Below, one piece after another: positions 44,900 through 49,083 of a DNA stretch of 64,000 nucleotides. Each line of letters starts with the position of its first letter. Position 1 is the stretch's first letter. The notes under the pieces were generated by a model. That model saw only the letters and a list, made by a program, of their open reading frames with translations. It was not told the DNA's origin and did not search any database. Both the position numbers and the translations under genes were made by a program. Source of the stretch: Candidatus Foliamicus sp. (GTDB lineage: Bacteria > Pseudomonadota > Gammaproteobacteria > Steroidobacterales > Foliamicaceae); assembly GCA_965249285.1 (NCBI GenBank), contig OZ252226.1, positions 1,187,095-1,251,094 of the forward strand, in the 5' to 3' direction.

Positions 44900-45258
44900 G
44901 GGCGGAAATTGTACTTTTCGGTCTGTGCCGGTTGGGCTATGTCCAGTCGCGCGGCGAGGCCGGAAACACCCTTTGCAGGGGCGTTCCCTTGGCGCCGAGC
45001 GTTTCCGGCGGCCAGGAACGGTCGGGATCGGGAGTGGCGCGAACCGCGTCTATGGCCTTGCGGATCCACCGCTCGCGTTCGCCATTCGCAAACCGGATCC
45101 TCGCGCATCGCCGTTTTCCTGTGTTCCGCCGGGCCGCTGCTGCCAATTGGCAAAGCCCTTGCGGCCTTAGCCCGGATAATGCATAAGTAAAGAGGGCAAG
45201 GCCTTTGATATTCGATATAATTCAGTTAGTTACGCTGATATCGAAAGAGACCTTGCCC

Positions 45259-46572
45259 ATGACAGATTGTATCCAAGAACGGCTGCCGTTTCCACGCTGT
45301 AAAGGACGCCGGGTCGAGGCCTGTTTTTCCGGCGGCGACATCACCTCCAATGGCGGCGTTTTGCTATTGCGTCAAGCCGACCGGATGTTGGGGTTAACCA
45401 AGCGGGTGGCCCAGGCGCTTTCCGATCCGCGCCGCTTAGCCAGTTGCTGCCACGATGCCTTGGCGATCGTTCGCCAGCGGGTCTACTCTTTGGCGCTGGG
45501 CTATGAGGACCTGAACGATCACGATCAGTTGCGCCGGCATTTGGCGTTACAGACGGCGGTGGAGAAGGATCGGGTATTGGCCAGCGCCTCGACCCTGTGC
45601 CGGTTTGAGAAGCGGGCTGGCCGGGAACAAGCGGTTCGCCTGCACGAGGTTCTGTTGGAGCAGTTCATCGCGTCCTACCCGCGCCCGCCGCGGCGTTTGG
45701 TATTGGACTTTGACGCCACCGATGATCGGGTGCATGGGCAGCAGGAGAGGCGGTTTTATCACGGCTATTACGACGCCTACTGTTTTCTTCCCTTGTATGT
45801 GTTTTGCGGCGACCGGCTGCTGGTGAGCTACTTACGGCCGAGCAAGATCGATGGGGCCAAGCATGCCTGGGCGGTATTGGCCTTGCTGGTCAAGCGGCTT
45901 CGGCGGGCCTGGCCGAAGGTCAAGATCGTGTTCCGCGGCGACAGTGGCTTTTGCCGCTGGCGGATGCTTCGCTGGTGTGAGCGTCATGGGGTGGGCTACA
46001 TCGTCGGGATCGCCCGCAACAAGCGCCTGAACGCGCTGTCCAAGCCCTTGCGGAACCAGGCTCACGATGAGTTTGAGCAAAGCGGAGACAAGCAACGCCT
46101 GTTTGATGAGTTCTTCTATGCCGCCCAGACCTGGGAGAAGCGGCGGCGGGTGATCGTCAAGGCCGAGCACACCGCCCGGGGATCCAACCCGCGCTACATC
46201 GTCACCAACTTGGCGGGATCGCCGCAGCACTTATACGATGCGGTGTATTGCGCCCGCGGCGACATGGAGAACCGGATCAAAGAGCAGCAGCTGCATCTGT
46301 TCGCCGACCGCACCAGCTGCCACCAGTGGTGGCCCAACCAATATCGGGTGTTGTTGTCGGCCTTGGCCTATGTGCTGTTGAATACCATCCGCCGGATCGC
46401 ACTGGCCGGCACCGAACTGGCCCGCGCCTATGTCGGCACCATCCGCCTTAAGCTGCTGAAGATCGGCGCCGTGGTGCTGCGCAATACCCGACGCGTTCAG
46501 TTGTTGCTGTCCAGCGCCCATCCGTATCAGGAGTTGTTCTTCCTGGCCGCTGCCCGGCTCAAGCCCGGATAA
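45259..46572 (+). CDS. IS1380-family DDE transposase
   Basis: LDFDATDD, RGDSGF, RGDMENRIKE. Confidence 0.95.
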   Translation: MTDCIQERLPFPRCKGRRVEACFSGGDITSNGGVLLLRQADRMLGLTKRVAQALSDPRRLASCCHDALAIVRQRVYSLALGYEDLNDHDQLRRHLALQTAVEKDRVLASASTLCRFEKRAGREQAVRLHEVLLEQFIASYPRPPRRLVLDFDATDDRVHGQQERRFYHGYYDAYCFLPLYVFCGDRLLVSYLRPSKIDGAKHAWAVLALLVKRLRRAWPKVKIVFRGDSGFCRWRMLRWCERHGVGYIVGIARNKRLNALSKPLRNQAHDEFEQSGDKQRLFDEFFYAAQTWEKRRRVIVKAEHTARGSNPRYIVTNLAGSPQHLYDAVYCARGDMENRIKEQQLHLFADRTSCHQWWPNQYRVLLSALAYVLLNTIRRIALAGTELARAYVGTIRLKLLKIGAVVLRNTRRVQLLLSSAHPYQELFFLAAARLKPG

Positions 46573-46768
46573 CAACGTATCCAGTCCGTCTGTCGCCGAG
46601 CTTGCTCCAAGCTCTCGGTTCGCTCGCCCCGATGCCGCACAACGGCCTCATCCCGAGGAAAAACACAACGATCCAGCGCCTCTCGCGCCCTGCTCAAGAC
46701 GTCTCCGGACTCGTCCCGCCCAGGTAGCGCCGAAAAACCCCTTCTTCCGCGCGCCCTCAGCGCGCTCA

Positions 46769-48756
46769 GTAGAGTCGGGGGCTGGCGCGCCAGTGTTAGG
46801 GTCCGGTGGCTGTTCCATCGCTTTCGCTCTGGGCCTCAGTCCGGCTCCCATAACCGCGTTTCCAGGCCCCCGCTCATCAAACCGGACGTGCGGTTTTCCC
46901 GCATCCGGCTTTCCGACGAGATCATGCCTTCGCCCACGGAAGGCCCTTGGTCGTTGGCCCAAGGCGGATAAGGCCGTAGTGCGCCCACAGCCGTTCGTTC
47001 GGAAAGCGCACATACTTCCCGCTCCTCACCTTGTGCTTCCGACACAGCCATTGTCGCAGCCGCTTCGTCGCGTGAGCATCGACCGCGCAATACGCCCGGC
47101 TGACCTGGCCAAGCCGAAAATACTGGGCCCAACCGGATAGCATCCGGTTCAGCCTCTCTACGACTTGCTCCGGGTCCTTCAGACCATGGCGCGATTCGGT
47201 TTGCTCACTGATCTTGCGGCAGATGCTTCGGATGCTGGCCTGGCTCGGCCGAGTGCCGATATAGGCCCCACCGCCGTTCGGACGGTAGTTCCATCCAAAA
47301 CGGTAGCCGAGGAACTCCATGGGTTCCGCCGGACATCGTAAGCATCGGGTCTTTTGCGCGTTGATCGGAAGCTTCAGCCTTTCCATGAGACGGGCGACAC
47401 GCGGCAGCATTTCCGCCGCCGGAGCCTTACCCAATACACAAAAGTCATCCGCATAGGACACGACCTCCGCGCACAAGCGCGGGGCAAAACCCCGCTGCTC
47501 CCAACCCAGTATGAAGCGCCGCATGTAGAGGTTGCTCAGCAGCGGTGATACCGGAGAACCCTGGGGGGTCCCCTTCCGTTGCTTGCGCGACCGGTGGGTC
47601 AGGCGCTTGCCGCCTTTCCCATCGTCCTCTTCAACCGCCATCTCCAACCACGCCTTGATGAGTCCGAGCATCTTGCCGTCGCTCACGCGACGCGCGACAC
47701 TCCTCATCAGTTCCGCATGGGGGATCTCGCCGAAGTAGTTGGACAAATCGCCATCTACCACCTCATGGTAGCCCCTGTTCAGGAGCCGGTGAATGCGCTT
47801 GACCGCATCCAGGGCGCTTCGTTCCGGCCGATATCCGTATTGCTCCGGTCGCAGGTCCGCTTCGAATATCGGCGCCAGCACAAGCAGGGCCGAAGTCTGT
47901 GCCACCCGGTCCCGGATCGTCGGGATACCCAAAGGCCGAAACTTGCCAGGTTGCTTCTTCGGGATCAGTACCTGTCGTACCGCTGCCGGTGCGTAGGTTC
48001 CGTCCCTCAGATCCCGCGACAGTTCCCCAAGCCACCGCTCCACGCCCTGCGACTCAATGTCCAGGAAACGCTCCCCGTCGATGCCAGGCCGACCGCCATT
48101 ACGGCGCGCCATAACCCAGGCCTCCAACAGAAAGTCCTTCCGCCAGACCTTGTCATACAAGGCGTGAAAGCGACGCTCGGGTTCTTCCTTCGCTTTCGCA
48201 TGTAAAACGATCTGGAGGTTCCGAACCCGTTGTGACCCTGTTAGGCTCGCGCCAGTGGCCATGCCTTGTCTCCTTACCGTTTCCCTCTCGAAGTCAGGCC
48301 CCTTTCCTCAACCGGCATTACCCGGCGTCCTCAGTCCTACGGGCCTGTCCGCCACCCTGCCGGCCCGGCCTGCCCCTCACGAGGGTCCGGTGGGTGCGTG
48401 CACACCTCCGACAGGGTTTCCCGTGTTGCTACGTCTTCCCTCTTCCGCACATGCCAGCGCCACTACCCCGGCGGGTACGTCCCGGTGCGCGCGTCGCTTT
48501 GCTTCCCGGTCCGTCATCGGCCTTCCCCTTATTGCAGGAGGGTCGGCTCCCGCATCGCCCTTTTCGAGGCCTGCTCAGCGTTCACTCGCGTTCCGGCCTG
48601 TACGGTCGCTGAGCTGCTCAATGCAGCCCTTTGTCACCGAAGTGCTTCAGTCCATGTCGTTACCTCCATGTCCCGCTCCGGCTGCTACCAACCGAAAACG
48701 ACAATGGTTGGGCGGGATTCGCACCCACCAGGAAAACGCGCCTTTCCACGGCGCAC
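46769..48756 (-). mobile_element. Group II intron (copy 1)
   Basis: 5' GTGCG at 48756; domain V GAAAGCCGGATGCGGGAAAACCGCACGTCCGGTTTG; 3' end ...CTCTAC at 46769. Confidence 0.92.
46922..48262 (-). CDS. ltrA: Group II intron reverse transcriptase/maturase, no endonuclease domain
   Basis: RPLGIPTIRDR, GTPQGSPVSPLLSNLY, YADD, domain X GWAQYF; ends at 446 aa. Confidence 0.95.
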   Translation of the reverse strand: MATGASLTGSQRVRNLQIVLHAKAKEEPERRFHALYDKVWRKDFLLEAWVMARRNGGRPGIDGERFLDIESQGVERWLGELSRDLRDGTYAPAAVRQVLIPKKQPGKFRPLGIPTIRDRVAQTSALLVLAPIFEADLRPEQYGYRPERSALDAVKRIHRLLNRGYHEVVDGDLSNYFGEIPHAELMRSVARRVSDGKMLGLIKAWLEMAVEEDDGKGGKRLTHRSRKQRKGTPQGSPVSPLLSNLYMRRFILGWEQRGFAPRLCAEVVSYADDFCVLGKAPAAEMLPRVARLMERLKLPINAQKTRCLRCPAEPMEFLGYRFGWNYRPNGGGAYIGTRPSQASIRSICRKISEQTESRHGLKDPEQVVERLNRMLSGWAQYFRLGQVSRAYCAVDAHATKRLRQWLCRKHKVRSGKYVRFPNERLWAHYGLIRLGPTTKGLPWAKA

Positions 48757-48769
48757 TGCATTATCCGGG

Positions 48770-49083
48770 CTAAGCTTTTTTCCGTTCCGCGCGGGCTCGT
48801 TTGATGAGGCCGTTCACGCGGTCGATCATTTCCTGAAGGTGTCTCGGCTCGAGCGGTGCTGCTGCCCATTCTTCCGTATGACTATGCCCTTCGATGTACG
48901 CGGAAAGCTCCTCATAGGCGCTAACAATGTCATCTATAAGGCCTTCGTCCCAATTCACCCTCTTTAGGCTTGTCACGATTATTCGATCTGTCCAGCGGTT
49001 CACAACCTGTTTCAACAGGTAGTGCGGAATGATTTCTTCAACGGTGCGCCGCAATTCACTCATGCCACGCTGGATTAGCTTAA
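48770..49083 (-). pseudogene. ABC/SMC-like ATPase fragment 4 (C-terminus)
   Basis: Joins fragment 3 in frame (VRIK/LIQRGMSELRR) after removing the IS3 and its TAA duplication. Confidence 0.75.

Follow-up and report, generated by a model that had tools for sequence, protein, structure and literature searches.

A group II intron within the terminal inverted repeat of an IS1380-family insertion sequence in Candidatus Foliamicus

The intron and its host insertion sequence

In a 64,000-nucleotide stretch of the genome of Candidatus Foliamicus sp. (GenBank assembly GCA_965249285.1, contig OZ252226.1, positions 1,187,095 to 1,251,094; hereafter the window, in which position 1 is the first base), an insertion sequence (IS) of the IS1380 family is interrupted by a group II intron that lies within its right terminal inverted repeat. 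The IS and the intron comprise the following features (ORF, open reading frame):

45170..48770, plus strand: IS1380-family insertion sequence, 1613 bp without the intron, its intron-free repeats identical at 15/15 positions
45170..45184, plus strand: left inverted repeat gcccggataatgcat, with an empty potential intron site after 45183
45205..46572, plus strand: IS1380 transposase ORF, 455 aa, apparently intact
46769..48756, minus strand: group II intron of 1988 nt with GUGCG and CUAC as its ends and a ribozyme of 647 nt without the ORF
46769..46913, minus strand: intron domains V and VI, Rfam RF00029, 45.5 bits against a gathering threshold of 40
46922..48262, minus strand: intron-encoded protein, 446 aa, reverse transcriptase (YADD) and maturase
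48757..48770, plus strand: 5′ exon of the intron, made up of the outer 14 bp of the right inverted repeat, tgcattatccgggc

On the minus strand the intron begins with GUGCGCC at 48756 and finishes with ..GACUCUAC at 46769, so that both conserved group II ends (5′ GUGYG and 3′ AY) are present. Domain I, at 48586-48730 on the minus strand, matches Rfam RF02003 (group-II-D1D4-4) over the full model (1-138) with 71.2 bits against a gathering threshold of 49, and domain V is of the standard 34-nt form. The intron-encoded protein, whose reading frame is in domain IV, contains the domains PF00078 and PF08388 and scores 323.8 bits against TIGR04416 (cut-off 300). Profile searches revealed no DNA-binding/endonuclease domain in this protein, which stops just past domain X, and the class D motif LX3AX3PXLF[V/A]HW is absent from its C-terminus (..RFPNERLWAHYGLIRLGPTTKGLPWAKA). 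Judged by these features, the element is a real, apparently intact group II intron.

The best named relative of the intron-encoded protein, with 46.9% identity over 98% of its length by tblastn, is that of Ni.ha.I1 on Nitrobacter hamburgensis plasmid 1; the match falls within CP000320 75444-77354, an interval that the supplement of PMC3552965 assigns to Ni.ha.I1, with ‘g3, Bacterial F’ as its class and ‘Transposase, IS4’ as its insertion site. Introns of the IIE and IIF groups are described as having no endonuclease region, a small IIB-like ribozyme of 450-700 nt, and exon-binding sites (EBS) 1 and 2 in domain Id (PMC3753933), and the window intron agrees with this description in its 647-nt ribozyme, its two adjacent EBS hairpins and its lack of an endonuclease. 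It is likely to belong to class F/g3, the class of Ni.ha.I1 and D.a.I1, an assignment made from similarity to Ni.ha.I1.

The transposase of the host element scores 412 bits against NCBIfam NF033539 (IS1380 family transposase; cut-off 180) and matches PF13701 with E=5.6e-165, covering profile positions 2-431 of 435. Members of the IS1380 family are about 1.6-1.7 kb long and have terminal inverted repeats of about 15 bp, and the window IS has the expected size and repeats once the intron is removed. Excision of the intron (46769-48756) fuses ..gcgctca (to 46768) with tgcattatccgggc (48757-48770), and the reverse complement of the rejoined right end, gcccggataatgca followed by t, equals the left end at 45170-45184 at all 15 positions. 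The intron therefore splits a 15-bp inverted repeat after its base 14, the fifteenth base of the right repeat being at 46768, across the intron from the other 14. The two IS ends are alike over these 15 bp only and differ further in. Read on the minus strand, the 5′ exon consists of intron-binding site (IBS) 2, GCCC, a 3-nt linker, and IBS1, UAAUGCA.

A TA dinucleotide adjoins both ends of the IS (45168-45169 and 48771-48772). IS1380-family elements have direct target repeats of 4-5 bp; none was found at the window IS, whose flanks are cTTA and TAAg with only TA repeated. These flanks are palindromic, as they are at locus L087 (below) and at other loci, and the IS ends may be defined otherwise, for example with TA as part of the element. 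An assembly error, in which repeat collapse or a chimeric join put the intron beside the IS end, would be in keeping with the 100% identity of the two intron copies in the window. However, both junctions coincide exactly with the canonical ends GUGCG and CUAC, intron removal gives a perfect 15-bp repeat, and the same junction type is present in at least 80 loci of other assemblies; an artefact is thus considered vanishingly improbable.

Pairing of the intron with the IS tip

Relatives of the intron, whose protein has more than 8000 homologues, were sampled as 80 loci on contigs of one genome per species, encoding proteins 71-82% identical to the intron protein. With few exceptions the genomes are metagenome-assembled (MAGs) and come from taxa such as Alphaproteobacteria, Longimicrobiales, Rhodothermales and Bryobacterales; from the taxon names, we take most of them to be sponge symbionts. 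Three contigs were added for the closest intron proteins (94%, 90% and 84% identity). An independent set was drawn from Joint Genome Institute (JGI) metagenomes with the conserved 19-nt intron start, giving 120 loci and 106 unique sites; only 12 of the 120 extend at least 3 kb beyond the intron start, so that the IS context is hardly testable there. A search of metagenomes with a 29-nt pattern of the intron 5′ end gave no matches. The elements that would pair with the target are:

48530..48536, minus strand: EBS1, UGCAAUA, in a 9-nt hairpin loop, covarying with exon positions -7..-1
48557..48560, minus strand: EBS2, GGGC, in the loop AAAAGGGCGAUG, pairing with GCCC, bases 1-4 of the IS tip
48679, minus strand: tentative EBS3, the G at position 78 of the intron, which would pair with base +1 of the 3′ exon

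The plus-strand sequence TATTGCA at 48530-48536 corresponds to UGCAAUA in the RNA and lies inside a 9-nt loop closed by CCCU/AGGG. Alignment of the relatives revealed two neighbouring domain I hairpins with conserved stems and hypervariable loops: across 39 distinct homologues 96% of the stem cells form pairs, and compensatory changes (UA 29, GC 5, AU 1, GU 1) occur in the pair that closes the second (EBS1) hairpin. For 43 distinct loop types, EBS1 paired with positions -7..-1 of its own exon at a mean of 5.77 of 7 positions, compared with 3.19 ± 0.20 after permutation of the exons, and none of 10,000 permutations reached the observed score. It is this covariation across relatives, not the single pairing in the window, that excludes a chance origin of the match. 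The window EBS1 pairs at 6/7 positions with the occupied 5′ exon UAAUGCA, with an A.A mismatch at -5, and at 7/7 with UAUUGCA in the empty tips at 42118-42124 and 62224-62230. The original prediction, made from the window alone, had placed the intron exactly 14 bp inside the right inverted repeat, had taken TGCAATA for the EBS1 loop, and had counted six pairs of seven with TAATGCA and seven of seven with TATTGCA at the ends at 42111 and 62217; the restored repeat, the domain I hairpin with its covariation, and a recount of the pairs bear out all three points.

The second loop behaves in the same way. In the window EBS2 pairs with GCCC at 4/4 positions, and among the relatives the EBS2 loop covaries with exon positions ~-14..-10, the longest run of pairs averaging 4.14 with own exons and 3.19 ± 0.13 with permuted exons (0 of 10,000 as high). 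Paired switches between relatives include CGGGC/GCCCG, CAGGC/GCCTG, GGGU/ACCC, CGUC/GACG, GCCU/AGGC and GUGU/ACAC. The EBS2-IBS2 pairing is dispensable for splicing in IIE and IIF introns, and a role in homing has been suggested (PMC3753933); since it is not needed for splicing in these related lineages, its covariation is evidence of selection on DNA targeting. A different candidate for EBS2, UGCGGG, which would match cccgcatattgca at 13/13 positions, was rejected, being invariant in all relatives and stem-forming; the loop that covaries is AAAAGGGCGAUG.

For EBS3 the covariation is partial: introns with U at this position have A or G at exon position +1 in 10 of 11 cases and those with G have C in 9 of 11, whereas those with A show no preference.

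Insertion sites of the intron and its relatives

The nearest relatives insert into the same kind of site. At L087, where the intron protein is 94% identical, the site is ctaGCCCGGATATTGCA/c (the slash marks the insertion point), antisense to an IS1380 transposase 88% identical to that of the window, and the other repeat of this IS, ctaGCCCGCATATTGCA/t, is unoccupied. At L088 (90% identical) the site is ..GCCGCAATATTGCA/c, and both loci have sites of the type ..ATATTGCA/. The sub-lineage formed by the window intron, L087 and L088 occupies IS1380-type tips only; the nearest relatives of the window intron occupy TATTGCA, the perfect IBS1 of the original prediction, of which TAATGCA/T in the window is a slightly mismatched variant.

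Among the wider set, the window transposase alone as a tblastn query missed most host IS elements, because the hosts are distant IS1380 branches or belong to other families; Pfam, NCBIfam and extra queries were therefore added. The partner repeat was found downstream of the intron at 12 loci, which were reconstructed as complete IS elements: IS1380 elements of 1613-1692 bp, IS1634 elements of 2083-2148 bp (NF033559, 282 bits), an ISNCY element of 1357 bp (NF033594, 352 bits), and an unclassified DDE element of 2327 bp with a transposase under all family cut-offs. In all 12, and hence across four IS families, the intron is 13-14 nt inside the tip, and in 11 of the 12 a TA lies just outside the tip on the intron side. 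Both ends of the same IS type are used (L041 and L067 vs L045 and L065; L073 and L079 vs L076), the latter three loci showing opposite-end use within one MAG. Since the target strand is the one running inwards from the tip, each IS end offers it, the two on opposite strands, and every insertion has the intron directed into the IS.

The same arrangement could have arisen from one ancestral insertion into a repeat, after which the 3.6-kb IS-intron composite spread by DNA transposition, with the transposase still recognising the 14-bp tip and the EBS/IBS match kept only for splicing. The contiguity of 14 of the 15 repeat bases at the tip, the restriction of left-right similarity to those 15 bp, and the likeness of the window and L087, in both of which the intron occupies the right repeat and runs antisense to the transposase, are compatible with this course of events. 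Between the window and L087, however, the introns are 95.7% identical in DNA and the host IS 87.3%, and the better conservation of the intron favours its spread among diverged IS copies over a drifting composite. Occupation of both IS ends in relatives, even within one genome, the unrelated 3′ exon of the identical second intron copy in the window, and the covariation of EBS2-IBS2, a pairing unneeded for splicing in related lineages (PMC3753933), also speak against spread as a composite, which we regard as improbable.

The second intron copy and the further IS1380-type tips of the window are as follows:

62446..64000, minus strand: second copy of the intron, running past the window end, with a 3′ exon (ccagtccgcgcc..) that differs from that of copy 1
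62217..62230, plus strand: empty IS1380-type tip gcccgcatattgca, preceded by TA, with an EBS1 and EBS2 match of 11/11
42111..42124, plus strand: unoccupied tip gcgcgcatattgca of a truncated IS1380 copy with transposase residues 2-150 only

Copy 2 is identical to copy 1 over all 1555 visible bases and the 3′ exons are unrelated, which indicates recent mobility. The tip at 62217-62230 is inverted and lies 215 nt from the 3′ end of copy 2, and the intervening 215 nt showed no match to anything else examined. The host of copy 2 may be a ~245-bp element resembling a miniature inverted-repeat transposable element (MITE), with its far end at the 62217 tip, if the unseen 5′ exon is a matching tip; this exon (~64434-64447) is predicted to be the reverse complement of an IS1380-type tip, near tgcaatatgcgggc, followed by TA. 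GC skew is negative in every 8-kb bin of the window, giving the minus strand the composition of a leading strand. The minus strand carries both window introns and the plus strand all three empty tips (at 42111, 45170 and 62217), of which one matches perfectly; in this small sample, the layout is suggestive of insertion into the lagging-strand template. The truncated IS1380 copy spans 42111-42600, with an intact left tip, ctaGCGCGCATATTGCAt, and a transposase part 83% identical to the full copy.

The TA is also seen in the unique 5′ exons of the clade, starting at -16 in 28 and at -15 in 13 of 74 (41/74; background 2%), and in the 106 unique metagenome sites, where it starts at -16 in 25, at -15 in 22 and at -14 in 15 (62/106; background 2.4%). 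Many metagenome exons resemble IS1380 tips, e.g. TAGCCCGGATTTCTCA and TAGCCTGAATAATGCA. The original prediction had described a retroelement specialised on transposon ends. Flanks collected from homologous introns showed that IS-tip targeting does recur in independent loci and genomes, but the range of targets is wider than IS1380, including IS1634, ISNCY, an unclassified DDE element and some non-IS repeats, and of the 69 clade sites whose 3′ flank extends for at least 2.5 kb, only 23 have downstream a transposase gene recognised by the query set. Among 84 downstream ORFs scanned with Pfam there were ordinary genes as well. At sites without a transposase gene few partner repeats were found downstream, so that these sites are mostly not MITEs.

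An account without any specialisation on IS ends can be drawn from the same counts. The lineage would recognise (T)A followed by any 14 nt that fit the EBS loops and would be easily retargeted, and IS tips would dominate the surviving copies as the most abundant multicopy sequences starting after TA. A TA at -16/-15 is found also in the distant plasmid relatives L081 and L083 (50-54% protein identity), which have no annotated transposase nearby; 28 clade sites have TA at that distance and no transposase gene downstream; some targets are not IS ends; and in class D introns the protein reads T-15 (PMC4615759). On the other hand, all 12 complete-IS sites are equally far from the tip across four IS families, and the window, L087 and L088 introns use IS1380-type tips only. 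We consider this account unlikely, though worth serious attention, and it refines the explanation preferred here more than it contradicts it.

That explanation is that the window element is a mobile, endonuclease-less group II intron for which the outermost 14 nt of IS1380-type inverted repeats serve as home site, which from the sequence comparisons is very probably correct. Several observations weigh against it, among them the low proportion of clade sites with a transposase gene. The occupied site in the window is suboptimal: position -5 has the A.A mismatch and position +1 a G.T wobble. EBS3 is only weakly assigned, the 5′ exon of copy 2 lies outside the window, and the strand argument is based on the GC skew of 64 kb only. 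Among the relatives, a Longimicrobiales subgroup is inserted close to the 3′ end of a ~130-nt repeat, not an obvious IS tip; L023 (4510-8541) and L024 (4510-8517) each have two introns in successive ~22-nt tandem target units (..ttctcacNNNNggtagc/); and Ni.ha.I1 (L086, 3008-4918) is inside an IS5-type transposase ORF, not in a repeat. Distant plasmid relatives (45-54% protein identity) are mostly in other contexts, some with TA at -16/-15.

Further structures were recorded at the sites of relatives. The ~130-nt repeat of L029, L033, L034, L038, L053, L054, L061 and L075 occupies ~130 nt upstream of the intron start (near 4440); its IBS1, TTCTTGC, forms a hairpin with GCAAGAA as the 3′ arm, conservation downstream is limited to ~8 nt, and an Rfam search of the repeat gave no match. 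Head-to-tail intron arrays without a spacer are present at L011 (4160-10129, three copies), L021 (4510-8484), L049 (4509 to the contig end) and L066 (4508-8503); the 3′ exon of the array starts with A in L011, L021 and L066, and L049 runs off the contig. A twintron is present at L005 (2593-5000; also L002 and L003), where a D1D4-4-type domain I (Rfam match 2619-2764) is split ~160 nt in by a ~1.9-kb insert beginning with another group II domain I (RF02005, 2788-3010, 166 bits). Ni.ha.I1 and a Rhizobium tropici relative (L085) both interrupt an IS5-type transposase at the same codon position, GYDAGK/K, which on sequence grounds is a different way of targeting IS elements within the wider lineage.

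Elsewhere in the window, inverted repeats of ~480 nt at 33584-34154 and 55175-55654, 21 kb apart and 87-90% complementary, may border an inserted or invertible segment holding the IS cluster; one arm adjoins a tRNA gene with a long variable arm (34067-34154). The region 56885-60493 contains an IS5-like transposase ORF (56885-57856, plus strand), IS21 istA/istB (58172-60029, minus strand) and an ankyrin-repeat ORF (60140-60493, minus strand) made of three 99-nt repeats; we take ankyrin-repeat genes to be common in sponge symbionts. Intergenic palindromic repeats resembling repetitive extragenic palindromes (GAGGGCnTCCnGCCCTC units) are located at 3334-3380, 5472-5523, 11453-11504, 18363-18409, 36017-36063, 39425-39551 and 40674-40774.

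Proposed mechanism, precedents and significance

In the proposed mechanism, the intron RNA would read the IS tip, EBS2 (GGGC) pairing with bases 1-4 and, after three linker bases, EBS1 (UGCAAUA) pairing with bases 8-14; the ideal partner of EBS1 would be UAUUGCA, and the probable EBS3 G would read the next base. Reverse splicing would insert the intron after repeat base 14, the DNA at the replication fork being single-stranded or duplex, as known from RmInt1 and RmInt2, and its own reverse transcriptase would copy it into DNA, most likely with priming from nascent lagging-strand DNA at the fork, as the intron protein has no endonuclease. T-16/A-15 outside the tip would probably be touched by the intron protein, like T-15 in RmInt1 and RmInt2, or would be the TA that flanks these IS families; the dinucleotide may be a protein contact, a feature of the IS end, or both. 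Anatomy, pairings, covariation and recurrence in independent IS copies can be read from the DNA itself, while the retrohoming pathway is proposed by analogy with RmInt1 and RmInt2 and the protein contact is presumed. The original prediction had expected the intron probably to immobilise the IS. For an IS that carries the intron, loss of transposition and continued movement as a 3.6-kb composite are both possible, the latter since the tip keeps an unbroken run of 14 of the 15 repeat bases.

Homing into IS repeats is not a new principle. The original prediction had named IS coding regions and attC sites as the known targets in mobile DNA, a list that omits RmInt2 of Sinorhizobium meliloti GR4, for which homing into both inverted repeats of ISRm17 has been published and assayed (Martinez-Rodriguez et al. 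2014, RNA Biol, PMC4615759). All copies of RmInt2 are in these repeats (see also the review PMC5894124), and ISRm17 is a member of the ISNCY family (PMC10194956). The IBS region of RmInt2 corresponds to positions -14..+1 of the repeat with a linker of 2 nt; in vivo selection gave 5′-CTAGTTC-3′ at -16..-10, where C-16 and T-15 are not RNA-paired; and insertion is biased to the lagging-strand template (PMC4615759). One homing product had two head-to-tail introns, explained by pairing of the EBS3 U with the first G of the intron, and the authors pointed out that repeats as targets double the target number and guarantee one on the lagging-strand template (PMC4615759).

The window intron resembles RmInt2 in its lack of an endonuclease domain, its insertion within an IS repeat, the derivation of IBS2-IBS1 from the repeat tip and the same -14..+1 geometry. 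Both repeats are used as targets by RmInt2 and by relatives in this clade, the right repeat only being occupied in the window. A T lies just upstream of IBS2 in both, the TA being shifted by one base relative to the required C-16 and T-15 of RmInt2, and head-to-tail tandem copies are shared, occurring naturally in L011, L021, L049 and L066. In contrast to the window intron, RmInt2 belongs to class D and encodes a 419-aa protein with the C-terminal motif; its host is ISNCY, its linker is 2 nt and its homing has been assayed, whereas the window intron has an IS1380 host and a 3-nt linker and is read from sequence. The window intron is, by its sequence, of a different lineage from RmInt2 and resides in a different host IS family.

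Other precedents share parts of this biology. Ni.ha.I1 likewise encodes only reverse transcriptase and maturase, has a small IIB-like ribozyme and resides in an IS, but it is 1911 nt long and interrupts the coding region of an IS4/IS5-type transposase at GYDAGK/K rather than a terminal repeat. The class D intron RmInt1 has no endonuclease domain and has its home site in an IS, ISRm2011-2, prefers the lagging-strand template, and has T-15 recognised by its protein (PMC4615759); its target, unlike that of the window intron, is inside an IS630-type transposase gene. Class C (IIC) introns at terminators and attC sites also take a structural or repeated feature of mobile DNA, not a gene, as target, but they have no EBS2 and recognise a hairpin, whereas the window intron has EBS1 and EBS2 and a 34-nt domain V. 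In the literature on group II introns with IS1380 or sponge symbionts, no description of this clade was found.

What goes beyond the literature located for this analysis is the recurrence of this targeting across a whole lineage and several IS families, with TA at a fixed offset. A broader reading, which we put forward tentatively as possible rather than probable, is that a class-F-like, endonuclease-less lineage is an obligate hyperparasite of TA-flanked DDE transposons, abundant in sponge symbionts of many phyla and present also in soil metagenomes. Its protein would read T-16/A-15, EBS2 the first 4-5 bases of the IS and EBS1 bases 8-14; changes in the two loops would shift it between IS families (IS1380, IS1634, ISNCY and others), and it might modulate IS activity.

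As the present case shows, the use of IS inverted repeats as safe, multicopy, two-orientation homing sites is not peculiar to one rhizobial class D intron: an intron of another lineage follows the same strategy, with further IS families as hosts and across many phyla of bacteria. Through their covariation, the EBS1 and EBS2 loops amount to a natural retargeting table for a compact ribozyme with an endonuclease-free protein, and the fixed TA at -16/-15 suggests a contact with that protein. If it is true that the intron blocks or alters transposition, this would be a case of a retroelement controlling DNA transposons.

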